64,000 bases of DNA from Deferribacterales bacterium (GTDB lineage: Bacteria; Chrysiogenota; Deferribacteres; Deferribacterales; Geovibrionaceae), in NCBI GenBank assembly GCA_050253075.1, contig JBFWJS010000001.1, positions 576,001 through 640,000 on the forward strand, written 5' to 3'. Positions 10,129-41,859 of the stretch are shown here, piece after piece; the stretch's first letter is position 1, and each line of letters starts with the position of its first letter. Below the pieces are notes generated by a model. The model was not told where the DNA came from, searched no databases, and was given only the letters and a program-made list of their open reading frames with translations. Made by a program: the position numbers and the translations under genes.

Positions 10129-10177
10129 TGTCGAAGAGTACCATAATAAGAAGAGAAAACGTACTATAAACTTTTAC

Positions 10178-10212
10178 GGGATATGACGGGATAATGTGGG
10201 ATAAGATGGGAT
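10178..10212 (+). repeat. Four GGGAT repeats at exact 10-bp period near prophage left end
   Basis: GGGAT at 10178, 10188, 10198 and 10208. Confidence 0.85.
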
Positions 10213-10255
10213 TTCCAAACATATTGAAAGAATAAGAAGGAACTATTTAAATCTC

Positions 10256-10612
10256 TTATTCGAGTTCGTCCTTCAGTGACAACGCATAGGAACTTCTATT
10301 GATGATAGCACGGATATGACTCTCTGAAAGACCAAACTCCTTAGCCAGATCTCTTTGATTAGAACCCGTAAACTTTTTCATGATCTGCCTATCTCTCTCT
10401 GGTCTAAACATCTGCTTTGTAGAATGAATGTAAATGTTCATGCCGCCAGTCTGAGAACCGACAACGAGTACAGAACGGACTGCGATCCTTTCGGCTGAAG
10501 ACTCGGAAATGCCTTCTTTGCAGGCGGCCGAAAAAATCGCCTCCGCAACTATTCTGGAATCTCCGGAGAGATCGTCAAGTTTTACTATCTGATCTTCAGG
10601 CTGCCACTTCAT
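10256..10612 (-). CDS. mor: Mor/C-family transcription activator
   Basis: GGMNIYI...RDRQIMKKFTGSNQRDLAKEFGLSESHIRAII, typical of the Mor family. Confidence 0.88.
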   Translation of the reverse strand: MKWQPEDQIVKLDDLSGDSRIVAEAIFSAACKEGISESSAERIAVRSVLVVGSQTGGMNIYIHSTKQMFRPERDRQIMKKFTGSNQRDLAKEFGLSESHIRAIINRSSYALSLKDELE

Positions 10613-11385
10613 CAGTCTGACTCTCTCTGTAATTTGGCCGCAGTTTGGGCAACCTTTGCAAGCAGTACTGCAGAATGTGTTAAGCTGCCGTCAGGAGCAA
10701 TCAGCTTGTTGTGATTGAGATAAGCAAGCTCAGCTCGTGATACAAGTATCAGATTTTCAAGAGTGATGTTCTGTTTGTCTCCATCAGCAAATATGATTGC
10801 ATGGCCTTCGGGTATTTCGCCGTGCGCATTTTCCCATATCATACGGTGCTTATATTTCCATACATTAGGTTCGCTGATTTTAACTTTAAGATAGCCGTCT
10901 CTGTCAGTAATTTCTGTGCCGACCTCGACAGCATTTTTAGGACGGTTCCCTTTTTTGAATGATGTGCGATTAGCACCCATAAAACCTTTCTTGCCTTTAT
11001 CCCAGGGGATGTGTCCTTTTTTAAAACGAGTGTTACGGCCATTACATAGATGATTCACTGAACATATCCGTTTGATAGAGTCACGGCCGTGATCAGTCTT
11101 GAAGTGCTCATTAAACAATAATGTTAGTTCAGCAATACTACGACCAGTGATATTCTCTTTAAGGAAGTCTATATGCACAGCAAAAAACTTTTGATTAGGT
11201 GACTGCCCTCTGCGGTGTCCACGAGGGCAGTCATTTGTGAGTTCATGCCTTTTGCATGTACTCCTAATCTGGTCTACAGACAAGGCAAGCCCAAACTCAG
11301 AGTTAAATAACTCTGTCAGATCCTTATAGCTTATACCTTTGATATTCTGCTTTAAGAATGTAATATGAAAATTCATATACCTCAT
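10612..11385 (-). CDS. HNH-endonuclease-like protein (HNH_3 type) with repeated N-terminal helical domain
   Basis: KHRMIWENAHGEIPEGHAIIFADGDKQNITLENLILV and FKKGH.PW.KG motifs. Confidence 0.8.
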   Translation of the reverse strand: MRYMNFHITFLKQNIKGISYKDLTELFNSEFGLALSVDQIRSTCKRHELTNDCPRGHRRGQSPNQKFFAVHIDFLKENITGRSIAELTLLFNEHFKTDHGRDSIKRICSVNHLCNGRNTRFKKGHIPWDKGKKGFMGANRTSFKKGNRPKNAVEVGTEITDRDGYLKVKISEPNVWKYKHRMIWENAHGEIPEGHAIIFADGDKQNITLENLILVSRAELAYLNHNKLIAPDGSLTHSAVLLAKVAQTAAKLQRESD

Positions 11386-11386
11386 C

Positions 11387-11641
11387 TTAATCTTGAGCCT
11401 CTATTGCAGTTTTACTGTTAAAGACATCGGGCATATCACCATATACTTCTCCTTTCTGAGCAGCTATGTGAGCTTTCAGCACTAAAGCATTATTTGCAAT
11501 AATTTGCTTTGATACGTCTGTAATAGCCTTTGCTCTGATAATCTCTGTTTTCAATTCATCTCCCGTGGTTTCTTCATCAGAGAGTCTTTCTAACTGTGCA
11601 AACAAGTGGTTTGTTAGGTCGATACTTTTGTTCTTTGGCAT
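11387..11641 (-). CDS. Conserved phage protein (LxNHLFAQLERL family), HNH-associated
   Basis: 84-aa ORF with AAGGAG RBS, stop directly adjacent to the HNH gene start. Confidence 0.75.
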   Translation of the reverse strand: MPKNKSIDLTNHLFAQLERLSDEETTGDELKTEIIRAKAITDVSKQIIANNALVLKAHIAAQKGEVYGDMPDVFNSKTAIEAQD

Positions 11642-11657
11642 TGTTGTCTCCTTATAT

Positions 11658-11720
11658 TGGTCTGCCTCATCAGTGCGGAGAGACCATTCTCCACAGACGC
11701 TCCATGCGGAGCGTTTCGGC
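11658..11720 (-). ncRNA. Type II hammerhead ribozyme with pseudoknot
   Basis: Minus strand reads GCC-GAAA-CGCUCC(GCAU)GGAGCG-UC-UGUGGAGA(AUGGUC)UCUCCGCA-CUGAUGA-GGC-AGACCA. Full catalytic core and three stems are present, and 3' GACCA pairs with loop UGGUC. Confidence 0.93.
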
Positions 11721-11992
11721 TATGATTCGGTTGATTTTAATAGTGTGTCTTTTACAGAGTTGAATATGAACTCAGCAGCCTCCTCTGCTGCTTCTTGTGT
11801 AAATTCATCAAAGCATCTGCATAGCTCTTCTATGCCTTCATCAGAGTCGTTATAGTTAAAGCTAAAGCTAGCTCCTCCTAAACCTTCAGGCCTAACTTTA
11901 ACACTGATACTAGGTTCATCTTCATGATCCTCTTTCAGTACAAGGATCTGTCCATATTTCTCTGTCTCATATAGTTTTGCGAACTTGTCCAT
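11720..11992 (-). CDS. Phage hypothetical protein
   Basis: 90-aa ORF with GGAG RBS in the early operon. Confidence 0.7.
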   Translation of the reverse strand: MDKFAKLYETEKYGQILVLKEDHEDEPSISVKVRPEGLGGASFSFNYNDSDEGIEELCRCFDEFTQEAAEEAAEFIFNSVKDTLLKSTES

Positions 11993-12002
11993 TCTCTACT
12001 CC

Positions 12003-12215
12003 TTATTTGATGAGTTCTTTTGTTTGTTTGATTACTGCTTCTTTCTCTTCATCTGTCAGTTTGTGGTTATTAACGACTGTTTCGATGATGAGACGATATT
12101 CTTTAATGACTTCTATTTTGCGTTTATCACTTAAGTTCAAGCTGTATAAACAAGAGCCCAAGGCTAAAAGCAGAAATACGAAAACGCCTACAATAACTAA
12201 AGTGGCTTCATTCAT
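12003..12215 (-). CDS. Small phage membrane protein
   Basis: N-terminal hydrophobic helix, RBS, overlaps the stop of the upstream gene. Confidence 0.65.
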   Translation of the reverse strand: MNEATLVIVGVFVFLLLALGSCLYSLNLSDKRKIEVIKEYRLIIETVVNNHKLTDEEKEAVIKQTKELIK

Positions 12216-12741
12216 TGTCTACTCCTTTGTTCATGTTTGCTTTTTTCCAGTCTTTGAAAGACATGCCAGGGTTTTCACGTTTACAGTCCAGATATGGCTG
12301 CACATAATCTGAGATGTCTGATGTGGAGATCCCTGTCATTTGTTTCAGTTTTTCTATTACTTTCTGAGCGTCCCAGTCGAAGAATAACTGATTGTCTGTA
12401 AAGTCTATGAGTCCTTTATCGTGCTGTTTCTGCAGCCAGAGTTCGAAGCCGTTTTCGTATTTCCAGGGATACTGGTCTGCCAGAAACTGAATAAGACGGA
12501 GCTGGCTTTCTGAGATGCCGCCGCCTTGCTGTTTCTTCGGTCTATTCTTTGGTCTGCGCTTCATCTTGAAGCCTTTCTTTTTCAGCTCGTCTATGAGCTG
12601 AGTCGCCTGGAAGTATGTCAGTTCCTTTGAACTCTTCACTTTAAATCTGGCGAGCATGTCTCTGTATGTGTCCTCATCCATGCCGAGCTTCGTCTTTGCA
12701 ACGTGTATCAGCGTTATCTGCTTTGCTTCTATCATCCTCAT
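12208..12741 (-). CDS. gemA: Mu gp16/GemA-family regulatory protein
   Basis: KQITLIHVAKTKLGMDEDTYRDML...SSKELT motif. GAGGT RBS before ATG 12741. Confidence 0.85.
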   Translation of the reverse strand: MRMIEAKQITLIHVAKTKLGMDEDTYRDMLARFKVKSSKELTYFQATQLIDELKKKGFKMKRRPKNRPKKQQGGGISESQLRLIQFLADQYPWKYENGFELWLQKQHDKGLIDFTDNQLFFDWDAQKVIEKLKQMTGISTSDISDYVQPYLDCKRENPGMSFKDWKKANMNKGVDNE

Positions 12742-12866
12742 GTGTACCTCTTTAAGCCCCTGCGCCCACAAAGGGGCACAGGGTTTGTTAAGGGGGGGAA
12801 ATGGCTGGGGGAAGTAAACCCCACTGGAGGCTCGACAAGCAAGCCGCCAGCGGGACACACATCCCG

Positions 12867-13484
12867 CTATTTGTCTTTAATATCTAGCTTCGCTATGTCC
12901 AGGCTGATAGCTTTCCATTCGCTTTCTGGTGTATCCCTCTCGTAGAATCTGATATAGTTCTTGCTGCCTGTTACAACGATGGAATCGCTGATGATATCCA
13001 TAGCCTTTTTCCACTCTGCCTCTTCTATCGCTAGGCGGCGGAGACCGAGAAGGCGGGACACGGATATTTTGCCTTCTTTGTCCACCTCAAAAGCATCCAT
13101 GACAACTACCTTCAGGTTTACGTTTGCTCCATCGCTCCATTCCTGAATCAGGTCGTCAATGATCGCTTTTGCAGCCTTCAGGCTTTCGTCAAATGTTATG
13201 TGTTCGCTAACCTGGATATTTACCTTCATACAGCCACAGTAGCTAAGTAGGCTGATATTGCCTTTCTTCCCTCCCAGCTCCACGCCGTGTTCGGCGGCGA
13301 TGAGATCAACGAAGTCGTTGACCTGATTTGTCGCCTCTGTCTTAAAATGCTGTAAGCCTGCCTGCTCGCACTTTGCATCTGCTATGAGCTTTTTCACAAG
13401 CTCGTCACGGAGCAGATCAGCAGGCTTTACCTTATCCGTTGGAACCATATGACCCTGTGCATTTGTTAAGAATCCGTCCATCAT
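12867..13484 (-). CDS. DUF3164-like transposable-phage protein
   Basis: NAQGHMVP..VKP.D.LRD, GGKKGNISL.S, WKKAMDII.DS...GSKNYIRFYER motifs. Confidence 0.85.
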   Translation of the reverse strand: MMDGFLTNAQGHMVPTDKVKPADLLRDELVKKLIADAKCEQAGLQHFKTEATNQVNDFVDLIAAEHGVELGGKKGNISLLSYCGCMKVNIQVSEHITFDESLKAAKAIIDDLIQEWSDGANVNLKVVVMDAFEVDKEGKISVSRLLGLRRLAIEEAEWKKAMDIISDSIVVTGSKNYIRFYERDTPESEWKAISLDIAKLDIKDK

Positions 13485-13693
13485 TCACCTCTGATGTTTT
13501 TATAGTATGTCCCAAGAGACTCTGCTCCCTGAGACCTGAACTCTTCCATAAGATCAAACACATCTATGCTGTCCACTAGCTGACTTGTTGCTTCTGTAAA
13601 ATCCATATAATCTTTTGCACTAAGTGCCAGTGTTCGCAGCTCTTCTTTTTGCTCTCTGATCTTCTTTTGCCTTTGTGTCGCTAGCCCTTCCAT
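13481..13693 (-). CDS. Phage hypothetical protein
   Basis: 70-aa ORF packed in the operon. Confidence 0.6.
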   Translation of the reverse strand: MEGLATQRQKKIREQKEELRTLALSAKDYMDFTEATSQLVDSIDVFDLMEEFRSQGAESLGTYYKNIRGE

Positions 13694-13701
13694 TTCTTCA
13701 C

Positions 13702-14892
13702 CTATGCCTTGAAGATAACGTCTGCGGTTACAAGCTCTTCGCCTATATTCGCTGCGAAGTTCATAGCCTTTGCCACAAGGTTATTAATAGTTAGAGGGTA
13801 TGTGTGATACTCAACGTCACCGAGCTTACCTCTTGATTTCAGCTTTCTATAGATAGCTTCATAGGCATCTTTGGCAAAGATAGTGGAGATGTTCTTACAG
13901 CCTACTCTGTTGAACTTGTGGATAAGATACTTCTCCACTTCTTCCTGTGTCATGCCTGTGATCTGAGCTTTATCCATACGGCGTGTAAGCTCTCTGAGGT
14001 CGTGTCGTTTATCTGATAGAGTGGTCTCCAGCTCTGGCTGCCCAAAGAAGACAACACCGCAAAGAGACTGAAAACCGTTCTTTAGCTCTGCGATCCTCTT
14101 CACAGACTTGAGAGCTTTGATGTTTAGCAGTTCTGCATCTTCGATGAATAAGACTTGCTGATATCCGGTTTCGCACCTGTTAGTAAGCAGCTGGATAGCC
14201 TGTCTGGATTTCTGCTCTCTTCGGATCTTCGGCTTTTCCTCCGGAGCTATGTCCATGATGATAGCATCCAGAAGAGACTCCGGTGTGATGCTGGACTTGT
14301 CCAGTATCTGAGGGAAGATCACCTTTATACCTTCGTCCTCCAGCTGCTCTGCTGCTGCCATGCGGATAGCGGATTTACCACAGCCGACTTCGCCATAGAC
14401 AGCGAACATGCCTTTATGATGTGCGGTTGAAAGGATCATCTCTTTTACGAATAGGTGATCCTCTGAATAGTAGATATCATCGACACTGTTTATGTCGCCT
14501 ACGAATGGATTTTTAAACAGCTTGAAATACTTCATTGTTCTCATGTTTATCATCTCTGCCTCCTCTGGCTCTGCTTCAAACTCTGCTGCTTTTTTCAGCT
14601 GAAATGGTTTCTTCCTCTCTTGTCCTGCTATGCGTCCTCTGCCGATCTTTCCGCTTTCCTCGTCATCCAGCCAGAGGTCTGCCATCGTGTACTCGTTTGT
14701 ATCCATCCACTCTGTGAGCTTTGGGTATACTTCAAAAGCCTTTGCTATTTTTTCGTCAAACTGCTCTCTCTTCGCAGGGAAGACTCCCTTCACAGCGAGA
14801 GATAAGGCCGCTGGGCTGAAGCCTGCTGTCTTTGATAACTGTGCCTGGCTGATACCGTTCTCACGAAGACATCGTTTCAGTAGTGCCTGCAT
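13702..14892 (-). CDS. Transposition AAA ATPase (ExeA-like, MuB counterpart) with N-terminal HTH
   Basis: Walker A GEVGCGKS, Walker B LFIEDAE, FFGQPEL. Follows the transposase. Confidence 0.88.
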   Translation of the reverse strand: MQALLKRCLRENGISQAQLSKTAGFSPAALSLAVKGVFPAKREQFDEKIAKAFEVYPKLTEWMDTNEYTMADLWLDDEESGKIGRGRIAGQERKKPFQLKKAAEFEAEPEEAEMINMRTMKYFKLFKNPFVGDINSVDDIYYSEDHLFVKEMILSTAHHKGMFAVYGEVGCGKSAIRMAAAEQLEDEGIKVIFPQILDKSSITPESLLDAIIMDIAPEEKPKIRREQKSRQAIQLLTNRCETGYQQVLFIEDAELLNIKALKSVKRIAELKNGFQSLCGVVFFGQPELETTLSDKRHDLRELTRRMDKAQITGMTQEEVEKYLIHKFNRVGCKNISTIFAKDAYEAIYRKLKSRGKLGDVEYHTYPLTINNLVAKAMNFAANIGEELVTADVIFKA

Positions 14893-16534
14893 CTGTGTCT
14901 CCTCCTTCTGTTATTTCCCACACGATCTTCTCAGCTTCCTTCAGTGATACTGACGATCCATACTTGTCACGCAGTTCCTGATTCATACCCTTTGGTATAC
15001 TGCCGAGCTTTTTAGATATCCTGTCGAGTACATCAATTATGGGGATGCGCTTATCCTCCAGTGTCTCTATCTTTGCGAGCTCGTGTGCTGTGCCGTGTTT
15101 TGAAATGTATTCGGGAACATCTTCTGATCTGTTGCCCATGACTGTGAGACTGCCACCGAAAGGCAGGTCTCCTTTTTTTCTATTGTCTCCGTATGCGAGG
15201 TTTTCTGATATTGCTTCCTGCTTTTGCAGGTCTGACTCTGGCAGTGCTTTGTACTCCTGCCCGATGATCGGTGCATCCTCTCTGAACCCTGCTTCGTTCT
15301 TTGCTATTGGTTCGACAATGTATTCCTGATCGTTGAACACCACGCCGATCTTCGGCCAGTCGAATACACGCAGGACAACCTGTACCTTGCTCTTGCGTGG
15401 AATGATGCCTGGTATCATGCGCAGGTCGTAGTCCAGAGTGCGGAACGGGATAGCATAGTGAGCGTCAACTGTCCTAGGTACTTCCGGCTCACGAAAGAGA
15501 TCCTGAAGCAGCTTCCTCTCCGGAAGGTTGATAAGCTGCTCTGGCTTGATTGTCATCCAGAGTGAGTTTCTGCTCTGCTTTGTTCTGCGGTGTATGCGTT
15601 CTGAGTTTATGGAAATACACCAGTCTGTGACCCATGTGTTGATATCTTCCAGAGAGTGAGCCGGCTGCAGACGGAGCCCTGATTCGAAACTGCCTTCGAC
15701 AAAATTATGCATACGTTCCACAGCACCCTGTATCTGTGACTGGTACGGCGTTGACTTTGGAGTTTCGACATTCAGCCTCTTCAGCCAGCCCATGATAGTC
15801 TTGCTCATGTTCGCAGAGCCGTGGTCTCTCAGGAGCTGGGCAGGTACACCTCTGAATGGCAGCTTGCCGCTCTTTTCTTCCCATGCGGAGATGAGGAAGT
15901 CGAAAAGGTCTGCCTGTGTCTCACCGCTGCTGTAGTAATACTTTACGTAGATAGCCCCGCTGTAGTGGTCTACCAGGACATAGCGCAGCAGACGCTGCTT
16001 TATCTGTTTGAAGTTTTCGATCTTGTTTTTATATAAAGACTTCTCGTCTCTCAGTCCGATCTGTCCGTCTTTCAGGTAATACTGGATACAGACCGAGGAA
16101 TCCACAACATGAACGTGGTTCGGGTGCAGGCTTCTCATCTGGACTGCCGGCTTTGCTGTTCCCATTGTCTTTTTGTCCATTTGTCTGTCCTTTAGGATGC
16201 GGTTCAGAGTGCTTACGCTTACGCTTCCTTTTTCTATTACGCCGTTGTTTTCGGCTATGCGCAGAGCCTCATTCATGGGCATGTGTGCGCCTTTGTTCTC
16301 TCTGGATGTTGTCATCAGCAGAGAGTGCAGGAACTGTATCTGATGCTTATTCATAGTACACTTGCCTGCGTCTGTTCTCTTTTGTCTGCCGCTGGAGAAG
16401 CCGTTTGCACGGGCTCTGCGGTAGAGCGTTGATTCGCACAGACCCGTTGTTTTCTGATACGCTTTGATTATCTCTCTTCGGGCAGAGGGGGTATCAGCTT
16501 TTTGCAGTTTCTCTGCCAGTTCCCTTTCCCACAT
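14861..16534 (-). CDS. DDE transposase (B3-type MuA counterpart)
   Basis: RSLHPNHVHVVDSS, LVDHYSG, RDHGSAN, GAVERMHNFVE catalytic motifs. Confidence 0.9.
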   Translation of the reverse strand: MWERELAEKLQKADTPSARREIIKAYQKTTGLCESTLYRRARANGFSSGRQKRTDAGKCTMNKHQIQFLHSLLMTTSRENKGAHMPMNEALRIAENNGVIEKGSVSVSTLNRILKDRQMDKKTMGTAKPAVQMRSLHPNHVHVVDSSVCIQYYLKDGQIGLRDEKSLYKNKIENFKQIKQRLLRYVLVDHYSGAIYVKYYYSSGETQADLFDFLISAWEEKSGKLPFRGVPAQLLRDHGSANMSKTIMGWLKRLNVETPKSTPYQSQIQGAVERMHNFVEGSFESGLRLQPAHSLEDINTWVTDWCISINSERIHRRTKQSRNSLWMTIKPEQLINLPERKLLQDLFREPEVPRTVDAHYAIPFRTLDYDLRMIPGIIPRKSKVQVVLRVFDWPKIGVVFNDQEYIVEPIAKNEAGFREDAPIIGQEYKALPESDLQKQEAISENLAYGDNRKKGDLPFGGSLTVMGNRSEDVPEYISKHGTAHELAKIETLEDKRIPIIDVLDRISKKLGSIPKGMNQELRDKYGSSVSLKEAEKIVWEITEGGDTDAGTTETMSS

Positions 16535-16536
16535 GC

Positions 16537-17565
16537 TTAATCCTTTGGTACTTTGTTATCGCACTTATATGTCTGAAAACCGTCACTGTAGAAATCTCTG
16601 CGTTCGCATGTGTCGCCTTTCTGGCATGTGTCGCACGGCAGCTCCGGCATGGCGTTGTCTGCTGCTGTGAAGCTGTCGCTGTATGCTGTGCCTTGCATCA
16701 CATCGTTAAAGATTTCTTCCAGATCTTTGACAACAGATATGTACTCTGCCTCCATCGTCGGTGTCATATCCTGTGGGAGATTGTGACGCTCCAGCTTTAT
16801 CAGCTGGCCCTTTGCGATTATCTTTATATTCTGTATATTACGAATAAATTTCTGCTCGTCTGCTGAGATGCCCAAAGCCTCTGCGGAGGCTTCATGCTTT
16901 GCCAGCTCGGATGCCATATCATCTATGGTTTTCTGCTTTGCAGAGATAACCTTTTGAGATGTTTTATTGAGCTGCTTTTCACGCTCTATTTGTTCGTCTT
17001 TCTTTTTCAGCAGGCCTTCCAGTGCTTCTTTTAACTCGTCTTTGTCGGTGAGGGGGATCTCTGTCTGGTCTCCGGATGCATCTATAATGATTCTGTCGTC
17101 TTGTATGGACAGTGTGCCTTCGGCTGCCTGACTGCGGAGCTGACGAAGCTCTCTATAACCAAGTCCAAAAGTGGCGACTGTCGCCAAAAACTCTTCGCCC
17201 AGAGCTTGTAGATTCTGTAAGTTTTCATCAGCCTGCCTACGTGAGATACCTATTGATTGACAGTAGTTTTCCCATGTTCCGATGCCTGGCATGTCTTTAT
17301 AGACTTTGTTTTCTTTGACTTTTTTTAGAAGCATAAAAGTGGCGACTGTCGCCACTTTTGAAATAAAACTGACTCCCTCTATGCGTCCAGTAAGTTTGAA
17401 TGCATCTGCTATCAGAGCCTCTCTCTCCTGCTGGTTTACAGGCTGAAGGGCTTGCTCCTCCATAACCTCTTCGGCTACTACTTCTTCTGCCGCTGCGAGG
17501 TCTAGCTCTGCTCTGTCGGCTGCTGCCTGTGTTTCATCTATTGTTTCTTTCTTTTTCCCTGCCAT
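16537..17565 (-). CDS. Phage DNA-binding/coiled-coil protein upstream of transposase
   Basis: TWENYCQSIGISRRQADENL HTH-like segment followed by coiled coil. Confidence 0.7.
   Translation of the reverse strand: MAGKKKETIDETQAAADRAELDLAAAEEVVAEEVMEEQALQPVNQQEREALIADAFKLTGRIEGVSFISKVATVATFMLLKKVKENKVYKDMPGIGTWENYCQSIGISRRQADENLQNLQALGEEFLATVATFGLGYRELRQLRSQAAEGTLSIQDDRIIIDASGDQTEIPLTDKDELKEALEGLLKKKDEQIEREKQLNKTSQKVISAKQKTIDDMASELAKHEASAEALGISADEQKFIRNIQNIKIIAKGQLIKLERHNLPQDMTPTMEAEYISVVKDLEEIFNDVMQGTAYSDSFTAADNAMPELPCDTCQKGDTCERRDFYSDGFQTYKCDNKVPKD
17167..17359. repeat. 20-bp direct repeat with palindromic core (AAAAGTGGCGACTGTCGCCA) inside CDS
   Basis: Copies at 17167-17186 and 17335-17354. 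The second extends to a 25-bp palindrome at 17335-17359. Confidence 0.9.
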
Positions 17566-17616
17566 TTCTTCCTCCTGTCCTCGGCATCTGTGTTATAATC
17601 AGATCAGAGGTGACAT

Positions 17617-17829
17617 ATGCTTAGTGATCAATCTGTTGAATTCGCTTGTGGAAATTGCAACCATAAGCTCCATGTAAAAATGAAGGACATGAAGCCTGGT
17701 GGAAGTATTACTTGCCCGTCCTGTGGAGCTATTACTAACTTTACGGGAGATGACATATCAAAGCCCGTTGCCCAGTTTGATAAAGCCATCTCTGATATCC
17801 AGAAGGCTTTCAAAAAGTTTGGTAAATAA
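17617..17829 (+). CDS. Small zinc-ribbon protein, antisense to the early operon
   Basis: CGNC...CPSC, GAGGTG RBS, extended -10 TGTTATAAT at 17591-17599. Confidence 0.75.
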   Translation: MLSDQSVEFACGNCNHKLHVKMKDMKPGGSITCPSCGAITNFTGDDISKPVAQFDKAISDIQKAFKKFGK

Positions 17830-17976
17830 CTCTTCGGCCTCTTGGCTGAGTGTTGCTACCTGCTCTTTTGATTCTATACGGTTGATTACTTTTGCGGTGC
17901 TCTGTATTGCTATGATCAGGTCTTGCTTTGCTCCTTCGTTTACGAGGAGCTCTATCTGTAATTCTCTCTTTGCCAT
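17758..17976 (-). CDS. Phage hypothetical protein
   Basis: 72-aa ORF with AAGGAG RBS. Its 3' end overlaps the convergent zinc-ribbon gene. Confidence 0.55.
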   Translation of the reverse strand: MAKRELQIELLVNEGAKQDLIIAIQSTAKVINRIESKEQVATLSQEAEELFTKLFESLLDIRDGFIKLGNGL

Positions 17977-17986
17977 CTTTATCTCC

Positions 17987-18187
17987 TTACATTAAGACGT
18001 AGACTTTCTGGTCTTCGTCATAGGTGTATTCATATGTGCCTTCAGATGTTTTAAAAACTATGTAGTCGTAGGGTACACAGTCGTCTCCGATATATGGTTT
18101 CGCATCTGCTGCATACTCTGACAGCATCGCCATCTGATTTGGGGTGTATGTGTCTCTTGGTAGAGTGCTGTATAATCCTTTGCTCAT
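17987..18187 (-). CDS. Phage hypothetical protein
   Basis: 66-aa ORF tightly packed in the operon. Confidence 0.6.
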   Translation of the reverse strand: MSKGLYSTLPRDTYTPNQMAMLSEYAADAKPYIGDDCVPYDYIVFKTSEGTYEYTYDEDQKVYVLM

Positions 18188-18188
18188 G

Positions 18189-18446
18189 TTATGGCCCCAG
18201 TCTATTAAGAGTGAGTTGTCTGTTTCGCCACTCTGCGAGAGACTTTGTCTGCTCTGCCTCTTCGGGAGTGAGCAGGACGCCAGACGGCCTTACGTTGTCG
18301 GTGAAGACTTCGCAGTATTCTGCTGTGCAGTAGAACGCTGATGAAGATCCGTCTGAAGATTTAAGGAATTGCTTAGCCTCGCTGCGGCATGAGCCACAGC
18401 AGTCGAATATGAGCTCATGCTTTGTCTTTGGCAGATCCTTTCTCAT
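18189..18446 (-). CDS. Phage hypothetical Cys-rich protein
   Basis: 85-aa ORF with ATGA overlap to the upstream gene. Confidence 0.6.
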   Translation of the reverse strand: MRKDLPKTKHELIFDCCGSCRSEAKQFLKSSDGSSSAFYCTAEYCEVFTDNVRPSGVLLTPEEAEQTKSLAEWRNRQLTLNRLGP

Positions 18447-19150
18447 AGCTCGTCTTCCTTATTAAAAAAGGATGTGGGCTTGCCGCACTTTGGGCAGTAT
18501 GGATCATCTGCCAGACCTATTGCGGTGTGTCCGCAATTGTTGCATTCCTGATGACACTGACGGAGATCCCCGCCACATGTGCGGCAAAATCTATCTGTGG
18601 TGTCTTTCACTGGCTCTTTGCATGACTTGCATGTGTGGGCTGTAGTTGTGTCTTCCTGCTTTTCTGGCTCGGCTTCATCAAAGAATCTTTCAGATATGTC
18701 ACAACCTGACCATAGAGGATATGTGCGACAATCGAACCAGACAGAGCCTGATCTGAAATCCTCTGGCCAGAGTGTGCGCATGGCTTCTGATTTACCATAC
18801 TGCTTTGCAGGTTCGGTGAAAACAATACGATCTTTTAATGAGAGAGGAAACTGTCTGAGAAACGCTAACTGATAAGAGCCCAGACCTCTCTCTGCTCTCT
18901 TGATAGACTCTAAGGCAGCAAATGCTGTGGCTGCTGCCTGAACGAGTTCTCTTTCCGCATCGGCAATGGTTTCGGCTTTTTCTATCTTATGACAGATGCC
19001 CTCTATGATGAGTCCCCATTGGTTCATTGAGTGGGTGTCATCGTGGTCTGAGCCGCCCCATTTCGTGTCTTGTCTCTGGCGTTCTGCTTCGACAAGTTTG
19101 AATATCTGATGCATATCATCAGTCATCGGTATGAAGTGTTTCTTAGTCAT
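18443..19150 (-). CDS. Phage protein with MazG-like helical N-terminus and double zinc-ribbon C-terminus
   Basis: AERQRQDTKWG...ERELVQAAA motif and four CxxC pairs at the C-terminus. Confidence 0.65.
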   Translation of the reverse strand: MTKKHFIPMTDDMHQIFKLVEAERQRQDTKWGGSDHDDTHSMNQWGLIIEGICHKIEKAETIADAERELVQAAATAFAALESIKRAERGLGSYQLAFLRQFPLSLKDRIVFTEPAKQYGKSEAMRTLWPEDFRSGSVWFDCRTYPLWSGCDISERFFDEAEPEKQEDTTTAHTCKSCKEPVKDTTDRFCRTCGGDLRQCHQECNNCGHTAIGLADDPYCPKCGKPTSFFNKEDEL

Positions 19151-19436
19151 TGCCTAGCTCCTGATTTATGTTTGTCTGTGCTGCCTGTAGCTTTGCTTTA
19201 CGGCGTGCATAAAGCATTGTTACCGCCTGACCTAGCTCCCACTGACCACCGACAGAACGGACGTATTTCCTGCTCTCCATTGTGACGAGGTAGTTCTTTG
19301 CTGAGGTGTATGTGATATCCATCTCGTCTGCTATTGCCTGTGTGCCCACAGGCTGTTTCTGCAGACTGAGCATGTCGAGGATATCCAGAGCCTTAGCCAC
19401 AGTGGATAATTCTGTGTATCCGCCCACTTTAGCCAT
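19143..19436 (-). CDS. IclR-type HTH DNA-binding protein
   Basis: STVAKALDILDML...IADEMDITYTSAKNYLVTMESRKYV. Confidence 0.8.
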   Translation of the reverse strand: MAKVGGYTELSTVAKALDILDMLSLQKQPVGTQAIADEMDITYTSAKNYLVTMESRKYVRSVGGQWELGQAVTMLYARRKAKLQAAQTNINQELGND

Positions 19437-19923
19437 TGTTCTGCTCCTGCATCTTCATCTGGAGTCTGCGCTTTCTGGCAGATTCTCTGACACTGTGGGC
19501 AGCGTTGATCAGCTCGTTTGCCTCACGCTCTATCTGCTCCAGTTCTTCTACGGTGTAGACTCCGTCCATGCGAGCCTCTGCATCTGCGCTTATGACATCG
19601 CTAGCTTCACGCATCATCTTTGCCACGTTTACCTGCAGGCTTTCCTGTGATGGTTTTTGCTCGGTATCCAGGACGACACGGCCGCCTATTTTGGATGCCA
19701 TCCAGTCCACCATTATTGTGTTGCCCAGACCTTCGCACAGTAGCGGGATGTTACGAGCTGATGGGTCGTATTCCGGATCAGTGAACATTCTTTGTAGCGT
19801 GCTGCTCGGTATGCCGGAGCTGATAGCCAGGTCTTTGAATGTGGCAGGGCTCATTGCTTTTGCGAATTCCTTTGCCTGCTGGAATGAGATTTCTCTCAGA
19901 TCAGGCATTCTGTTAAGTGTCAT
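19429..19923 (-). CDS. Phage regulatory CII-family protein
   Basis: N-terminal HTH and DGVYTVEELEQIEREA C-terminal motif. Follows the cro-like gene. Confidence 0.7.
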   Translation of the reverse strand: MTLNRMPDLREISFQQAKEFAKAMSPATFKDLAISSGIPSSTLQRMFTDPEYDPSARNIPLLCEGLGNTIMVDWMASKIGGRVVLDTEQKPSQESLQVNVAKMMREASDVISADAEARMDGVYTVEELEQIEREANELINAAHSVRESARKRRLQMKMQEQNNG

Positions 19924-19978
19924 ATTAGTTGTCTCCTATATTGTTCCTATCCCTGCAAATTACTAGGATTGAAAGAAT

Positions 19979-20007
19979 CCTCCCCATGTGCTTCAATCAT
20001 GGGGAGG
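19979..20007 (-). terminator. Hairpin downstream of cro-like gene (candidate attenuator/terminator)
   Basis: CCTCCCCATG-N9-CATGGGGAGG followed by ATTCTTT on the minus strand. Confidence 0.5.
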
Positions 20008-20047
20008 CAAACCCAGGAGTGTTTCAGGAGGGAAAGGGTATTATGTT

Positions 20048-20245
20048 TCATTTGATGCCGAGCAGTTCTTTGGCTGCTGCTTCGATGCGGTCTGAGTCTA
20101 TCTTGCCGTTAAAAAACTGGCTGACAGAAGCACCCGTTACTTCTGCTTTTTCGGCGATTTGTGTTTGTGTGATTTTTTTACGTCGGCGGATTTTGTCTAA
20201 TTCGTTACGTTTAGTGAGTTTTTCGATTGCTAGATCAATGTGCAT
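20048..20245 (-). CDS. Cro/Ner-like HTH regulator
   Basis: ITQTQIAEKAEVTGASVSQFFNG HTH, divergent from the repressor. Confidence 0.8.
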   Translation of the reverse strand: MHIDLAIEKLTKRNELDKIRRRKKITQTQIAEKAEVTGASVSQFFNGKIDSDRIEAAAKELLGIK

Positions 20246-20284
20246 TATGATAACCTCAAGTAGTTTTTAAGTAATAAGTAACTA

Positions 20285-20338
20285 AATAATACATCAAAAT
20301 GAGGTAATGTCAAATATTAACTTTATCATTTCGAGGTA
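20285..20338. promoter_or_regulatory. Lysis/lysogeny switch: leftward promoter and two candidate operators
   Basis: Minus-strand TTGACA (20313-20308)-N16-TATTAT. Related dyads TACATCAAAATGAGGTA (20290-20306) and TTTATCATTTCGAGGTA (20322-20338). Confidence 0.6.
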
Positions 20339-20359
20339 TTGTTTGCGGTGTAAATGTAA

Positions 20360-20785
20360 ATGTTTGGAGCACAACTGAAAAAGATAAGAAAAGAGTTAGA
20401 GCTTTCACAAACTCAATTTGGTGAACGACTTGGAAAAGGTTTGGCAACAATACAAAGATGGGAAGCACTAGAGGAACCGCCAAAGGATTCTATAATAAAT
20501 CTCATATGTAGTGTTTTTGGTATTAGTGAAACATGGTTGAAAACAGGCACAGGTAACATGTATGGCTCATATTCAAATAACCAAAGCATACAAAAGAATT
20601 ACGGAATACAGATACAAAATAATGGTAACATAACCCATTTTGGAACGCCTACAAACCCTATGACAGAGGGCGTTGAGAAAGACGTTAAGGAACTGTTTGA
20701 AATGATTTTAGAATATGGTACCCCAAAAATCATCAAACAGTTTAAGTCAAAAATGGAAGCTATTAAAAAACTTCATGAGGAGTAG
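20360..20785 (+). CDS. XRE-family prophage repressor
   Basis: LKKIRKELELSQTQFGERLG...WLKTGTGNM HTH. No S24 peptidase domain evident. Confidence 0.85.
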   Translation: MFGAQLKKIRKELELSQTQFGERLGKGLATIQRWEALEEPPKDSIINLICSVFGISETWLKTGTGNMYGSYSNNQSIQKNYGIQIQNNGNITHFGTPTNPMTEGVEKDVKELFEMILEYGTPKIIKQFKSKMEAIKKLHEE

Positions 20786-20790
20786 AACCA

Positions 20791-21852
20791 ATGGATACAA
20801 TATATGGAATTATCTTTTGGGCAATAATTATCTATTATTTTTATAACCGAAGAAAAAAGAAAAAGATGTCTGAAAATGTAAATGTTAAAACACCTGTCAG
20901 AAAGGAAAACTCTGAGAATAATATAGTTCATCAGGTGGATAATATAGATGGGGTGGTAGTACAGAAGACGAGGATGCCAGAAGATATTGCACACTTACTT
21001 TGGTTCTCTAATGGTAAATATAAGAATTATGATCCTGACTCTGTTGGGAACACTATCGATACAGGTCTTGGTATTTCTTTTAAAGCATACATGAATACAG
21101 ATATAGAACCGAGTCTGATAGACATTACACTTCCAATAAAGAAGCCGCATGACCTCATGTTTGTTGAAGCATTAGGCTATTGGCCAAGATATGAAAACCT
21201 TAACCCTGAGCAAAGATGGGTTTACCTTAGCTGGCTTCAGAATATTGAAATTTCAGTTGATATAGGCTATGTATTTTTATTTTATTACGGTCTTGAAAGA
21301 CATCTGTTCTTAGGAGATATAGACGCAGCATTTGATATGATACTACGGCTGAATGCTAATCATAATAATAATTCATTCCATAGCTACTCAACCAATGCTT
21401 TGCTTGGCGCAATACTATATCACAAGCGTTCTGATCTGCTTGAAAAGTTTCTGCTCAGTACATCAAATTTCGTTATTTCAGAGCTTTACTTATTCGTTAA
21501 GCTTTTATTAGATAAACCACTTCTCGCAGAAGAAATAATAGCATTGTCAAGCAAAGTGGGCTTTACGAATAAAAGATATATAAAATCTGACTATGAATTA
21601 TTTATAAAAATATTAAAGAAAGAGATTCTGGAGCAAACTGGATCTGAGAATTTATCTTGGCAGAATTTAGATATTGATCAATGCCCAATGATAAAAACAA
21701 CACTTACTGCTAACCAGTCGATATCTCCACGTGAGATATCAATACCAGATGTTATGCAAGATTATAGATATAAAACATTAGTAAATAAGTTATTAAAATC
21801 TACGCATGAAAAAGTGAAAGTTGAATTGAGAGAGCTTAGAAAAAAGGTGTGA
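20791..21852 (+). CDS. TerB N-terminal-domain protein with N-terminal membrane anchor (AT-rich cargo)
   Basis: YWPRYENLNPEQRWVYLSWL...DIGYVFLFYYGLER motif. Confidence 0.8.
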   Translation: MDTIYGIIFWAIIIYYFYNRRKKKKMSENVNVKTPVRKENSENNIVHQVDNIDGVVVQKTRMPEDIAHLLWFSNGKYKNYDPDSVGNTIDTGLGISFKAYMNTDIEPSLIDITLPIKKPHDLMFVEALGYWPRYENLNPEQRWVYLSWLQNIEISVDIGYVFLFYYGLERHLFLGDIDAAFDMILRLNANHNNNSFHSYSTNALLGAILYHKRSDLLEKFLLSTSNFVISELYLFVKLLLDKPLLAEEIIALSSKVGFTNKRYIKSDYELFIKILKKEILEQTGSENLSWQNLDIDQCPMIKTTLTANQSISPREISIPDVMQDYRYKTLVNKLLKSTHEKVKVELRELRKKV

Positions 21853-22094
21853 GCTCTCATGTGTTGACACCTATCTTATATCTGTATATTCTGAGACACT
21901 CCAAACATAAACCCCTTAACTTATTATAATTTCTTCAAACTCCCCGTAGTGTAATAATCAACCATATTGCCTAATGTGACTCTTAAGCCAATCGGAATTT
22001 GCCATCCGTGGAAATTCCGACATGCGCTCGCACCACACAAGTGTGGTTTCGCTGCGCACGGCGAAACAGCATCATGCTGTTTTAGGAGACACAC

Positions 22095-22559
22095 ATGGCA
22101 AGACTTTCAAACATAATCATACACTGCAGCGACAGCACATTTGGCTCTGCTGCTATTATACGTCAATGGCATCTGCAACGTGGCTGGAGAGACATCGGCT
22201 ATCACTTTGTGATCTGTAACGGCAAGATCGCACCTGATCTCTTTATTCCTGAGATGGACGGTAGTATCGAAACCGGCAGACCGCTGGACGGCGATCACTT
22301 CATCACTGGTGATGAAGTGGGCGCACATGCGCTTGGGTATAACTCTAACTCTATCGGCATCTGCAATATCGGTGTCAGATCATTTTCTCTTAATCAAATG
22401 GCATCTCTGCATGACCTGCTTTTCAGGCTCATGGACAAATTCGACATACCTATAGAAAACATTCTCGGACATTACGAGACAGCGCAGGCACACGGCAAAA
22501 CATGCCCGAACTTTGATGTCTCTGAGCTCCGTGAGTTTATGAAATCATACAGACCGTAG
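22095..22559 (+). CDS. Endolysin, N-acetylmuramoyl-L-alanine amidase (T7 lysozyme-like)
   Basis: IIIHCS, GWRDIGYHFVI, GAHALGYNSNSIGIC, GH...KTCPNFDV motifs. Confidence 0.93.
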   Translation: MARLSNIIIHCSDSTFGSAAIIRQWHLQRGWRDIGYHFVICNGKIAPDLFIPEMDGSIETGRPLDGDHFITGDEVGAHALGYNSNSIGICNIGVRSFSLNQMASLHDLLFRLMDKFDIPIENILGHYETAQAHGKTCPNFDVSELREFMKSYRP

Positions 22560-22568
22560 GAGGTATTG

Positions 22569-22997
22569 ATGAAGATATTAAGATCTATTTTTCTCGTCCT
22601 GCTGCTTGCTTTTGCGGCGGTGGGCTGTACGGCTGACCCTGTGGTGGCAGACTCTGTGGGCAATATCCTGAGCGGATATGTATTCCCTGCGCTGGCATCT
22701 CTGGGCGGTGTCTTGGCACTGATGGCTATGCAGCAGTTCCAAAAGAAGACGGGCATACAGCTGAAGAAAGAGCAGATGCAGTATGTGCAGAACATGGCAG
22801 AGGAAGCTGTGCTCTATGTGACGGAGATAGCGGCCCAGAAGGCTAAGTATTCTGTCAAGCTCCACGCTGGCGAAAAGAAACAGATGGCTATGACAAAGCT
22901 GGTATCTGCTGTACCAACGCTGTCTAAGACAGAGGCAGACGAAGCTATACACGCTGCACTGGCACGCATAGGCGAAGGAGCATCGGCAGTATCATGA
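22569..22997 (+). CDS. Holin-like membrane protein with putative lipoprotein signal
   Basis: LLLAFAAVG-C lipobox-like sequence, second hydrophobic helix, AEEAVLYV.E and GEKK..A motifs resembling LL-H-type holins. Confidence 0.55.
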   Translation: MKILRSIFLVLLLAFAAVGCTADPVVADSVGNILSGYVFPALASLGGVLALMAMQQFQKKTGIQLKKEQMQYVQNMAEEAVLYVTEIAAQKAKYSVKLHAGEKKQMAMTKLVSAVPTLSKTEADEAIHAALARIGEGASAVS

Positions 22998-23119
22998 CAC
23001 TGCTAGCGATTGTTCAGCTGGTGTCGGCAGTGCTGCCACTGGCTATGAAAGGGATAAGATCCGTGCAGGCTAAACGCAAGTCTGCACGGGTGATACGTGA
23101 GATCAGGGGTGAGGTATGA
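22994..23119 (+). CDS. 41-aa cationic amphipathic peptide (not in ORF track)
   Basis: MTLLAIVQLVSAVLPLAMKGIRSVQAKRKSARVIREIRGEV, with ATGA overlaps at both ends. Confidence 0.7.
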   Translation: MTLLAIVQLVSAVLPLAMKGIRSVQAKRKSARVIREIRGEV

Positions 23120-23478
23120 CACCGGAACAGATAGCTGCTTTTTCCGCCATTGCTACACTTCTGGAAAGAATAGGTACATGGCCAGTGGGTACATTGATTG
23201 TTGTGATGCTTATTTCACCCTGGGCGATTCTGGTCTGGGTGACTATTACCCAGCGTAAGCAGCTGGACGAGTTTGTAAAATCTGCAAACACACAGTCAGC
23301 GCAGTTTAAACAGATGTATGAGAACAATGCAGAGCTTGTGAAAGGCTTTCTGCGTCTGAGCACTGACCTGCACGACACCGTGGTCCTGAACATAAGGGAG
23401 CTGACAGAGATGAAAGACATAGCAAAGAATAACCAAATCTGCCCACTGGTGCGTGAGCAAGGGAGAATGAAGCCATGA
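23116..23478 (+). CDS. Phage membrane protein
   Basis: One TM helix followed by coiled coil, GAGGT RBS. Confidence 0.7.
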   Translation: MTPEQIAAFSAIATLLERIGTWPVGTLIVVMLISPWAILVWVTITQRKQLDEFVKSANTQSAQFKQMYENNAELVKGFLRLSTDLHDTVVLNIRELTEMKDIAKNNQICPLVREQGRMKP

Positions 23479-23723
23479 GCAGTAATAGACTGATCATGCA
23501 GGGGAAGCTGCAGGAGCTGAAAGAACAGCGCAGAAAGCTGACTCTGCGGGCTGACAGCCTTATGGAGTCTATCACTGCTGACCTGACTCTGTATGAGGTG
23601 ACGAAGCTGGTTGATATAGATACTGAACGTGTGAGGGTGCTAAGCACTGAGCTGGACGAGATCAAGCAAGAAGTGCTGGAGCTGGACACACATATACAAA
23701 AGCTGAGGGATGAACTTGGGTGA
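23475..23723 (+). CDS. Phage coiled-coil protein
   Basis: 82 aa, coupled to neighbours, upstream of the small terminase. Confidence 0.7.
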   Translation: MSSNRLIMQGKLQELKEQRRKLTLRADSLMESITADLTLYEVTKLVDIDTERVRVLSTELDEIKQEVLELDTHIQKLRDELG

Positions 23724-24240
23724 GCATAGCAAACGCCGCAGCAGCATAGAGAGCGAGCTGCCCGAAAACATCCGCAAGGAACTGCGGCGCCGACTGGTGG
23801 AAGATAACGAGACCTATGACGATATCACCGCATGGCTGAACGCTGAAGGGTATGACATAAGCCGCTCTGCTGTGGGACGATACGGTAAAACCTTCTTTGA
23901 CATTGTTAAAGATATGAAGGTGATAGAAGAGCAGTCCGCAACGCTGGTGGGTGATGAGGCAAGCAGCATGGTTCTGGAGGAAGCAACGACTAAGCTGATC
24001 CTGAACAAGCTGATGCAGATGCTGATGACAGATGATGTGGATCTGAAGAAAAGCACAAGGATCATGACCGACCTGGCGAACCTGCAGAAGTCGAACGTGA
24101 GCAGGGAAAAGCTGAAGATAGAGATCAGAGACAGAGCGAAGGCTGTCGCTGAAAAAGTGGCAGGAATAGCTAAGAAGAAAGGTCTGACACCGGACACAGT
24201 TGCGAGGATCAAGAAAGAGATCCTGGGCATTAGTAAATAA
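23710..24240 (+). CDS. Mu gp27/DUF3486-like putative small terminase
   Basis: RRSSIESELP...GYDISRSAVGRYG motif. Confidence 0.85.
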   Translation: MNLGEHSKRRSSIESELPENIRKELRRRLVEDNETYDDITAWLNAEGYDISRSAVGRYGKTFFDIVKDMKVIEEQSATLVGDEASSMVLEEATTKLILNKLMQMLMTDDVDLKKSTRIMTDLANLQKSNVSREKLKIEIRDRAKAVAEKVAGIAKKKGLTPDTVARIKKEILGISK

Positions 24241-24253
24241 CACAGGGAAATCC

Positions 24254-25771
24254 ATGAAAGCAGTTATGGCTGAAAGCACTGACAAACACATAAAGCCGAT
24301 ACAGACAGTTACCGCAAGTAACGGTGATGATATCCGCATCCTTCTGAAATATCAGGCTGACTGGTGTGCTGATCTGGCTGATGTGAAGTTTCTGGAAAAG
24401 TCCAGACGTATCGGCGGGACATTCGGAGAGATACTGGATGACTGTCTGACTGCTGCCGGAGAGATCGGAGACGATATCTGGTACATCGGATACAACAAAG
24501 AGATGGCGCAAGAGTTCATACGTGCGGCAGCTGAGTTTGTCCGTGTGCTGCACAATGAGCTGGTTGATATAGATGAAGAGATAATAGAAGACGAAAACAA
24601 AGATATCCTGACCTATGTGATCAAGCTGGCTAGTGGACACAGAGTGTCTGCTCTGTCCTCTGCTCCGTCTAACCTGAGAGGTAAGCAAGGGATCATCGTA
24701 ATAGATGAAGCTGCTTTCCATGAAGACCTCGAAGAGGTGCTGAAGGCTGCCCTGGCTATGCTGATCTGGGGCGGAAAGGTCAGAGTCATCAGCACCCATA
24801 ACGGTATAGACAACACCTTTGCAATATACATCAAAGATATCAAAGAAGGCAGGCTGCCATATAGCCTGCACACAGTAACATTCAGAGATGCTATCGCTGA
24901 TGGGCTCTATAAACGTATCTGTCTGGTGAGCGGAAAGGAATACTCACCGGAAGCGGAAGATGCGTTTGTAGAATCTATCTATCAACAATACGGCGAAGCG
25001 GCGGATGAAGAGCTGGACTGTATACCTAAGAAGTCCGGCAAGAGCTACTTCAACAGTGCTGTTGTGGAAAACAACCTGGATAAGGGCATCCCTTATCTGG
25101 AATTTGGGAAGCCTGACGAATGGAAGCTGCTTGACCCTGATGTCCGCAGAGCTGAGATCACTGAGTGGTGTGAGGAAAATCTGACTCCGCTGCTGGAGAT
25201 GTACGACAAGGAGACAGTGTGGTTCGGAGAGGACTTCGCACGTAATGGTGATGCAACTATCTTTGACCCTTGCTTCGATGATGGAGACAACTTTACAAGC
25301 ATGTTCCTGCTGGAGCTTCGCAATATCCCGTTCGCAGATCAGGAGACATTTCTCTTCTTTATCCTTGACCGTGTAAACCTCGGCGGGGCTGCACTGGACG
25401 CTACAGGTAACGGTGCCCAGATAGCAGAGAACACTGCACTGCGCTATGGAGTAGACCGTGTGCATGAGATCAAGCTGAATCAAAAGTGGTATCAGGAAAA
25501 TGTGCCACGCTATAAGACACGCCTGGAAGACGGCACTATACGCATGGCTGACAATCAGGCTGTGCGTGATGACCACAGGGTGTGGGTGTCGGCGAATGGT
25601 GTGCCGACTATCGGTAAGAGAATCAACTCAAAAGGTAAGAAACACCACGGCGATATCGTCATAGCAAAGGTTATGGCTGTGTATGCCAGAAACAATATAG
25701 AGGTGCTGGAGACAGAAGTGATGTCTGCAGCAAAGAGAGAAGGATACAGGGAGGCCGCCTATTATGGCTGA
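24254..25771 (+). CDS. Terminase large subunit (Mu gp28-like)
   Basis: EKSRRIGGT, NLRGKQG, IDEAAFH, ISTHNG, GEDFAR.GD, HGD motifs. Confidence 0.93.
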   Translation: MKAVMAESTDKHIKPIQTVTASNGDDIRILLKYQADWCADLADVKFLEKSRRIGGTFGEILDDCLTAAGEIGDDIWYIGYNKEMAQEFIRAAAEFVRVLHNELVDIDEEIIEDENKDILTYVIKLASGHRVSALSSAPSNLRGKQGIIVIDEAAFHEDLEEVLKAALAMLIWGGKVRVISTHNGIDNTFAIYIKDIKEGRLPYSLHTVTFRDAIADGLYKRICLVSGKEYSPEAEDAFVESIYQQYGEAADEELDCIPKKSGKSYFNSAVVENNLDKGIPYLEFGKPDEWKLLDPDVRRAEITEWCEENLTPLLEMYDKETVWFGEDFARNGDATIFDPCFDDGDNFTSMFLLELRNIPFADQETFLFFILDRVNLGGAALDATGNGAQIAENTALRYGVDRVHEIKLNQKWYQENVPRYKTRLEDGTIRMADNQAVRDDHRVWVSANGVPTIGKRINSKGKKHHGDIVIAKVMAVYARNNIEVLETEVMSAAKREGYREAAYYG

Positions 25772-27275: not shown

Positions 27276-27387
27276 GGCGTTTTAACGCATTAAATATATG
27301 AAACAGCCGAATGTGCGTATTTAGCACAAACGGCCGGATAAGGGCATTTATAAACGTTTTTAAACGCATATATAAGCGAGGTTTCGA

Positions 27388-28635: not shown

Positions 28636-28714
28636 ACCCGATGTGATCCAGCCATCGGGAGGCAACACCCTTGCTGATTGCCGCCACTGGTCTGACGGTC
28701 AGGGTACGCTACCT
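28629..28714 (-). ncRNA. Putative ~86-nt structured small RNA convergent with muF
   Basis: Own promoter, long 5' stem-loop (28714-28660), terminator hairpin CCCGAUG-N9-CAUCGGG plus UUUACUUUU. Confidence 0.75.
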
Positions 28715-28720
28715 GATTTA

Positions 28721-28749
28721 AATATAGTTGAAAGACTTTGAGAGGTCAA
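28721..28749 (-). promoter_or_regulatory. Sigma70-type promoter for the small RNA
   Basis: TTGACC (28749-28744)-N17-TATATT (28726-28721). Predicted +1 A at 28714. Confidence 0.75.
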
Positions 28750-28754
28750 GAGAT

Positions 28755-29609: not shown

Positions 29610-29612
29610 AAG

Positions 29613-29969: not shown

Positions 29970-29974
29970 AAAAG

Positions 29975-30952: not shown

Positions 30953-30965
30953 ATAGGAGGGGAGT

Positions 30966-31397: not shown

Positions 31398-31398
31398 T

Positions 31399-32408: not shown

Positions 32409-32409
32409 C

Positions 32410-32721: not shown

Positions 32722-32723
32722 TT

Positions 32724-34403: not shown

Positions 34404-34405
34404 AA

Positions 34406-34831: not shown

Positions 34832-34851
34832 ACATATAAAAGGAGACAAAC

Positions 34852-35339: not shown

Positions 35340-35341
35340 AT

Positions 35342-41216: not shown

Positions 41217-41219
41217 GTT

Positions 41220-41858: not shown

Positions 41859-41859
41859 T

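Follow-up and report, generated by a model that had tools for sequence, protein, structure and literature searches.

Type II hammerhead ribozymes, their pseudoknot, their location in prophages and the idea that they process polycistronic RNA were all described by Perreault et al. (2011; PMC3088659). In that study, tandem prophage hammerheads cut a 2-kb polycistronic RNA in vitro, and it was proposed that gene-length mRNAs are produced in this way. Among the genes near which hammerhead and twister ribozymes occur in bacteria, those of Mu-like phages show the strongest association (PMC10085705; PMC6765202; PMC5737381; PMC4604425). The enrichment of self-cleaving ribozymes near such genes is credited to Roth 2014 and Weinberg 2015 in two of these articles, which state the reason for it as unknown (PMC10085705; PMC6765202). 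Cellular RNA of Desulfovibrio vulgaris contains read ends at the cleavage sites of three prophage-type type II hammerheads (loc 1-3), although for one of the three the reads are few (PMC8782182). Two other self-cleaving RNAs, the synthetic insulator RiboJ (10.1101/317875) and the ribozyme glmS (PMC3997798), leave an mRNA with a 5'-OH ahead of a ribosome-binding site (RBS). In E. coli, RiboJ raises the transcript about twofold and the protein two- to tenfold (10.1101/317875). Further background is found in PMC6993053 and PMC13725137.

Here we describe a type II hammerhead in the early operon of a Deferribacterales prophage. The window analysed is a stretch of 64,000 nucleotides (positions 576,001 to 640,000 of contig JBFWJS010000001.1, assembly GCA_050253075.1), and all coordinates of the prophage refer to it. 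The ribozyme has the topology, canonical core, short stem II, pseudoknot and intergenic prophage location of the hammerheads of Perreault et al. (2011), and no structural difference from them was found, but it is a single copy where theirs are clustered. It shares the Mu-like setting of the ribozymes of Roth 2014 and Weinberg 2015, with gemA, DUF3164, MuB, MuA and mor all within 0.3-3.2 kb. Like loc 1-3 of D. vulgaris it is of type II and lies beside phage-like genes; those have cleavage ends in vivo, whereas cleavage of the prophage copy is predicted. RiboJ and glmS belong to different ribozyme classes and are not homologues, but the former is an analogy for a stabilising outcome of cleavage and the latter for a destabilising one; glmS is also ligand-gated, while no ligand site is suggested here. 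The Mu-like association is already published (PMC10085705), and the ribozyme itself, found in the best-known setting of its curated family, is nothing out of the ordinary.

The prophage and its early operon

The hammerhead lies in an apparently complete transposable prophage of 33.3 kb. A DDE transposase, a TnpB/MuB ATPase, GemA and a Mor/C protein are all found, and the arms are divergent. Divergent arms and a 6-bp target duplication are typical of B3, for which the marker genes are also named (PMC8705779). The prophage went into a chemotaxis cluster, at the beginning of a response-regulator gene immediately 3' of cheA. Two relatives from the same genus have this gene uninterrupted, again immediately 3' of cheA. 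The features of the prophage are as follows:

10129..43460, no strand: B3-like transposable prophage with TG...CA ends and a 6-bp target duplication (10123-10128 / 43461-43466)
20286..20313, minus strand: best sigma-70-like site (11/12) 5' of the Cro/Ner-like gene; a candidate for the early promoter
12208..16534, minus strand: gemA (PF06252), DUF3164 (PF11363), MuB-like ATPase (phrog_296) and MuA-like transposase (phrog_310), 5' of the predicted cut
11720..11992, minus strand: 90-aa gene (phrog_9037, phrog_19244), whose stop overlaps the first base of the ribozyme
11387..11641, minus strand: 84-aa gene (phrog_2044), the first of the predicted 3' cleavage product
10612..11385, minus strand: HNH endonuclease gene (PF13392, phrog_1891)
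10256..10612, minus strand: Mor/C-family transcription activator (PF08765, phrog_532 "late transcriptional activator"), the last gene of the leftward operon

The leftward arm begins with Cro/Ner-like, CII-like and IclR-like genes and small genes, and continues with the transposase, the MuB-like ATPase, DUF3164 and gemA. After gemA come a 70-aa gene, the 90-aa gene, the hammerhead, the 84-aa gene, HNH and mor, while the right arm carries lysis, head and tail genes. The Mu-like early operon that the preliminary description had seen around the ribozyme is borne out by gemA, MuB, MuA and mor. We infer a single transcript that extends as far as mor. Taken together, promoter-like sites are no more frequent than chance would give (13, where 20 are expected).

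Some other features of the window deserve mention. Within the early arm a small zinc-ribbon ORF (17617-17829, plus strand) runs antisense to the other genes. The repressor is followed by a gene with a TerB_N domain (20791-21852, plus strand), and both may be accessory. A 342-aa gene contains a 21-nt inverted repeat (95%, 17166-17360). The host also has a selenocysteine tRNA gene (58849-58941, plus strand; Rfam RF01852).

Anatomy and folding of the ribozyme

The element matches Rfam Hammerhead_II (RF02276) at 63.6 bits, against a gathering score of 37 (E 7.6e-11). The match covers 11656-11721 and the full model (positions 1-66 of 66). Judged by its sequence, it is a genuine, new member of Hammerhead_II in the family's expected setting. 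Its parts are:

11658..11720, minus strand: type II hammerhead ribozyme with pseudoknot tail (RF02276), predicted cut 11696/11695
11664..11720, minus strand: three-way junction made of stem II (3 bp), GAAA, stem III (7 bp), C17, stem I (8 bp) and CUGAUGA
11658..11662, minus strand: 3' tail GACCA, complementary to the stem I loop UGGUC (11686-11682); possible pseudoknot
11648..11653, minus strand: Shine-Dalgarno (SD) sequence AAGGAG of the 84-aa gene, whose AUG is at 11641

Read along the minus strand, the ribozyme opens with the 5' side of stem II (GCC, 11720-11718), which is followed by GAAA (11717-11714) and by stem III, in which 11714-11708 pair with 11703-11697. The cleavage triplet GUC (11698-11696) places the predicted cut at 11696/11695. 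The eight pairs of stem I, including one G-U, then join 11695-11688 to 11681-11674 around the loop AUGGUC, and CUGAUGA (11673-11667) leads into the 3' strand of stem II (GGC, 11666-11664). The core is thus canonical (CUGAnGA, GAAA and a UH cleavage site), with stems I and III closed by loops and stem II open. Five Watson-Crick pairs are possible between loop I and the 3' tail, where at least four are expected of the predicted pseudoknot. Upstream, the ribozyme abuts the 90-aa gene so closely that the G of its stop codon (UAG, 11722-11720) is the first base of stem II; downstream, the SD begins 5 nt past the GACCA tail. Each element named in the preliminary description, including the cleavage position, the pseudoknot and the place in the gap between the 90-aa stop and the 84-aa RBS, is found where it had been put, and the Infernal search that it had called for gives a match well above threshold.

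This is the sole Hammerhead_II match in the 3.04-Mb genome. In the phylum, 3 of 68 genomes have a type II hammerhead, the source genome being one of the three, and none was found in 14 control genomes. Within the prophage, Rfam yields no further ribozymes down to E 5, and our own covariance model, run without filters, finds no second hammerhead, the next match scoring 12 bits.

For the minimal RNA (11722-11652), the fold of lowest predicted energy is the active one; 2 of 200 shuffles fold equally well (z -2.5). With longer flanks, stems I and III persist (probability 0.97-0.99), while the 3-bp stem II falls to 0.01-0.02 in a model that does not include pseudoknots. Folding in context would thus rely on tertiary contacts. 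In these longer folds, upstream coding bases are able to pair with the core, and 4 of 18 consensus hammerheads assayed by Perreault et al. (2011) failed to cleave (PMC3088659), so in its native surroundings this copy could cleave slowly or not at all. We consider this very improbable given the perfect core, the persistence of stems I and III, the 5-bp pseudoknot and the typical context. The copy is probably active, as far as can be judged from its features.

The preliminary description had also suggested that the ribozyme could control translation through the RBS. In such a switch, the ribozyme or its pseudoknot would mask or expose this site and so regulate the 84-aa gene. The tail does end 17 nt before the AUG, which is about the edge of the 30S footprint. 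However, the SD lies outside every ribozyme helix. With the pseudoknot outside the model, the predicted cost of opening it is 1.0 kcal/mol in one precursor and 0.4 kcal/mol in another of different length, and again 0.4 kcal/mol in the product, so it would be accessible both before and after cleavage. In these folding models occlusion of the RBS is not supported, and we regard such a switch as extremely improbable.

A conserved slot in Mu-like loci

A survey anchored on gemA gave 160 Mu-like loci, of which 122 are distinct. A hammerhead is present in 47 of the 122, two weak matches (20 and 30 bits) being counted in. Where at least 4 kb is available upstream of gemA, 38 of 74 loci have one and 36 do not. 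All 70 matches are on the sense strand. Relative to MuA/MuB, the hammerhead is always on the downstream side (37 of 37 loci), and wherever mor is found it comes before that gene (38 of 38). In the 30 loci with MuB, gam/DUF3164, gemA and mor, all 32 hammerheads fall in the interval from gam/DUF3164 to gemA, which holds 153 of the 543 gene stops; since the surveyed loci are related to each other, these counts are not independent-sample statistics, and the slot may simply be inherited. The genes flanking it vary: the 36 proteins encoded upstream form 23 clusters, and the 29 encoded downstream form 14. The prophage copy differs from the main matches of the surveyed loci, which are upstream of gemA, in that it lies downstream, between gemA and mor.

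The idea that the ribozyme uncouples mor from the transposition genes, raised when the element was first noticed, is in keeping with a position after MuA/MuB and before mor. A role specific to mor does not follow, because the 36 relatives without a hammerhead and a locus whose two hammerheads are both downstream of mor (L301) show that the ribozyme is optional. The second of these (L301 9834-9899, plus strand) is of type II and scores 41.9 bits with our own model; it is not listed by Rfam. On this sequence evidence a processing role is plausible and fits the conserved position, and it cannot be essential across Mu-like phages.

Other ribozymes were considered as replacements for the hammerhead where it is missing. 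This was rejected: no other Rfam ribozyme reaches its cut-off in the 23 loci scanned out of 37 hammerhead-free ones with at least 3 kb upstream of gemA, nor does any other ribozyme class at Rfam cut-offs in three further loci (L298-L300). Three Mu-like prophages of the same phylum have no hammerhead. Some hammerhead-free Mu-like loci have Rfam matches to the C4, isrK or sRNA-Xcc1 family RNAs downstream of gemA (L212 9006-9185, L330 9223-9303, L381 11154-11235, L397 9781-9862). In L299, another prophage of the family, a homologue of the 90-aa gene is followed by a 60-nt gap with a possible stem (about 6780-6835, minus strand) and no hammerhead; this element folds no better than shuffles, and no match to it was found.

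In the prophage itself, the usual slot of relatives' hammerheads, the probable DUF3164-gemA gap, is occupied by a long imperfect hairpin (12741-12867, minus strand) together with a second hairpin just 5' of the gemA RBS (z -4.0, 0 of 200 shuffles). The long hairpin has no credible Rfam match, and apart from copies in the same genome no relatives of it were found in 466 loci, 67 other genomes and phage records. It may be an RNA of no described class or a processing site of the RNase III type, and it might serve this prophage as an alternative processing signal.

The 84-aa/HNH cassette

In many phages and bacteria the 84-aa and HNH genes (10612-11641, minus strand) form a closely linked pair, with HNH adjoining the 84-aa homologue in 158 of 162 loci. 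In PHROGs, phrog_2044 is labelled "RNA polymerase beta subunit", which is doubtful for 84 aa. A hammerhead that travels as part of this mobile cassette was rejected: a type II hammerhead is present in 6 of the 162 loci only. It is found in 5 of 12 cassette loci with Mu markers and in 1 of 150 without, and thus follows the Mu-like operon and not the cassette. Four of the six hammerhead-bearing loci were used in building our model, but Rfam had found those first; a hand-written scanner recovered 3 of the 162 where the covariance model found 6, and was not used for counts.

In three loci (L002, L263 and L279) the hammerhead is just upstream of the cassette. In L279, a Desulfovibrio Mu-like prophage, two near-identical hammerheads bracket the cassette exactly (1148-2306), and each begins right after a stop codon. 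Such an arrangement might mean that stop, ribozyme and SD together serve above all as a movable junction, marking the points at which recombination between copies brings accessory genes in or takes them out, with cleavage itself having little effect on fitness. A locus with four copies among the matches listed (L046), the variable flanking genes, the half of relatives that lack a hammerhead, and the GC content at 10.2-12.3 kb, which is below that of the transposition genes, are in keeping with this. Against it, the prophage has a single copy, the catalytic core is intact across divergent copies although recombination does not need it, and the 32 hammerheads keep to one interval holding a minority of the gene stops. 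We judge this reading to be decidedly unlikely.

Gene junctions in viral relatives

A pattern scan of viral contigs returned at least 126 stretches, representing at least 120 distinct hammerheads besides the prophage copy. Among annotated phages, nothing better than weak matches to this region came up. We aligned 51 sequences, namely 44 of the 51 hammerheads with a long stem I region and 7 others including the prophage copy. Among the matches listed, two-sided changes are seen at 6 of 7 pairs of stem III, 7 of 7 of stem I and all 5 of the pseudoknot. Overall, 90% of cells pair, compared with 32-41% when the partners are slid, and 74% of the pseudoknot cells are paired. Covariation in stem I, stem III and the pseudoknot is above shuffled and slid controls. 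The constancy of stem II and the core is no evidence, because the search pattern fixed both.

These relatives also have the gene junction of the prophage. Once weak-stemmed matches, duplicates and those with less than 900 nt upstream were removed, 77 hammerheads remained, and in 59 of these, among the matches listed, a gene stop falls within -12..+6 of the first stem II base. The same holds for 66 of 2156 control positions shifted along the sense strand. Under a less strict test the counts were 94 of 111 for the sense strand and 12 of 105 for the antisense, again among the matches listed. Downstream, an SD and a start codon occur within 60 nt in 81 of 114 of the matches listed, the mean of shuffles being 21. 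Only 5 of 80 such loci among the matches listed have a Mu marker within 3 kb, as scored by home-made profiles. The stop-ribozyme-SD unit is thus general, and the layout of the prophage is typical.

Given the size of its footprint, a ribosome at the 90-aa stop would cover the 5' strand of stem II and GAAA. Cleavage could thus be gated by translation: a ribosome terminating there would mask these elements, and the cut fraction would depend on how heavily the 90-aa gene is translated. The overlap of the 90-aa stop with the first stem II base, the stops at the viral hammerheads and the 43 of 48 cases in Mu-like loci that begin at the upstream stop codon are all consistent with this. However, genome compaction alone predicts zero spacer upstream, and the upstream genes are mutually unrelated. 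Moreover, a stop-like triplet is present in 70 of the 77 leaders, among the matches listed, whatever the frame, and the stop may thus be no more than a by-product of the A-rich leader. As a reading of this locus, translational gating remains on the unlikely side.

A model for processing of the early transcript

Hammerhead cleavage gives a 5' piece with a cyclic phosphate and a 3' piece with a 5'-OH. In the model that we favour, the leftward early transcript is processed at a gene junction by the self-cleaving RNA, probably constitutively. After transcription, stems I to III would fold, the pseudoknot between loop I and the tail would form, and the RNA would be cut at 11696/11695. The upstream piece would then carry the transposase, MuB, DUF3164, gemA and the 70-aa and 90-aa genes, ending in a 2',3'-cyclic phosphate past stem III, at a predicted one base beyond the hairpin. 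The downstream piece, of about 1.44 kb, would carry the 84-aa gene, HNH and mor. Its 5'-OH would sit on a fully paired stem I hairpin (the first 8 nt have a predicted pairing probability of 0.7-1.0), and it would retain a 54-nt leader with a free SD. With the cut giving two pieces with their own ends, the ribozyme would resemble a natural insulator. The two halves would get separate decay rates, and the distal, mor-containing half is the one most likely to be protected.

Both cleavage of this copy and the direction of its effect on expression are what we infer from these features. The full-length Rfam match, the canonical core, the covariation, the sense-strand bias and a slot that is kept while its flanks vary support the model. 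RNase E prefers 5'-monophosphate ends, and 5' hairpins stabilise the mRNA downstream (PMC3997798; PMC11780869). The reading to which we incline, if by a modest measure, is that processing is constitutive and that it insulates the 84-aa/HNH/mor message and probably protects it.

The effect could instead be destabilising, as with glmS. The host encodes both RNase E/G and RNase J, and in B. subtilis RNase J1 degrades the 5'-OH product of glmS (PMC3997798; PMC11780869). Cleavage would in that case damp HNH and Mor, for example upon leaky early transcription in the lysogen, and the downstream genes are indeed a nuclease and a lytic activator. On the other hand, the new 5' end is predicted to be base-paired from its first nucleotides, and the SD and start codon so often present downstream in viral relatives suit a translated product. 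A destabilising role for this copy thus seems improbable. Re-ligation of the pieces by a host RtcB was set aside, as the genome has no match to PF01139.

Outlook

Why Mu-like phages carry such ribozymes is a question put by the literature (PMC10085705; PMC6765202), and the prophage copy offers a clean case of it, since the prophage seems complete and its one hammerhead, canonical in form, immediately precedes the end of the operon with mor. A tractable host with the same arrangement would be equally good or better for the question. The survey sharpens two testable rules, the fixed slot and the start at the upstream stop codon. Our literature search found no published statement of the slot, of the abutment on a stop codon or of a role; Roth 2014 and Weinberg 2015 with their supplements, which may bear on this, fall outside its scope.

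More generally, and only tentatively, the hammerhead of Mu-like phages may be a dedicated, possibly translation-gated processing site. Starting at a stop codon between the transposition genes and gemA/mor, it would allow the late-gene activator a level and a timing different from those of the transposition proteins. If true, this would give the self-cleaving ribozymes of phages a concrete biological role.
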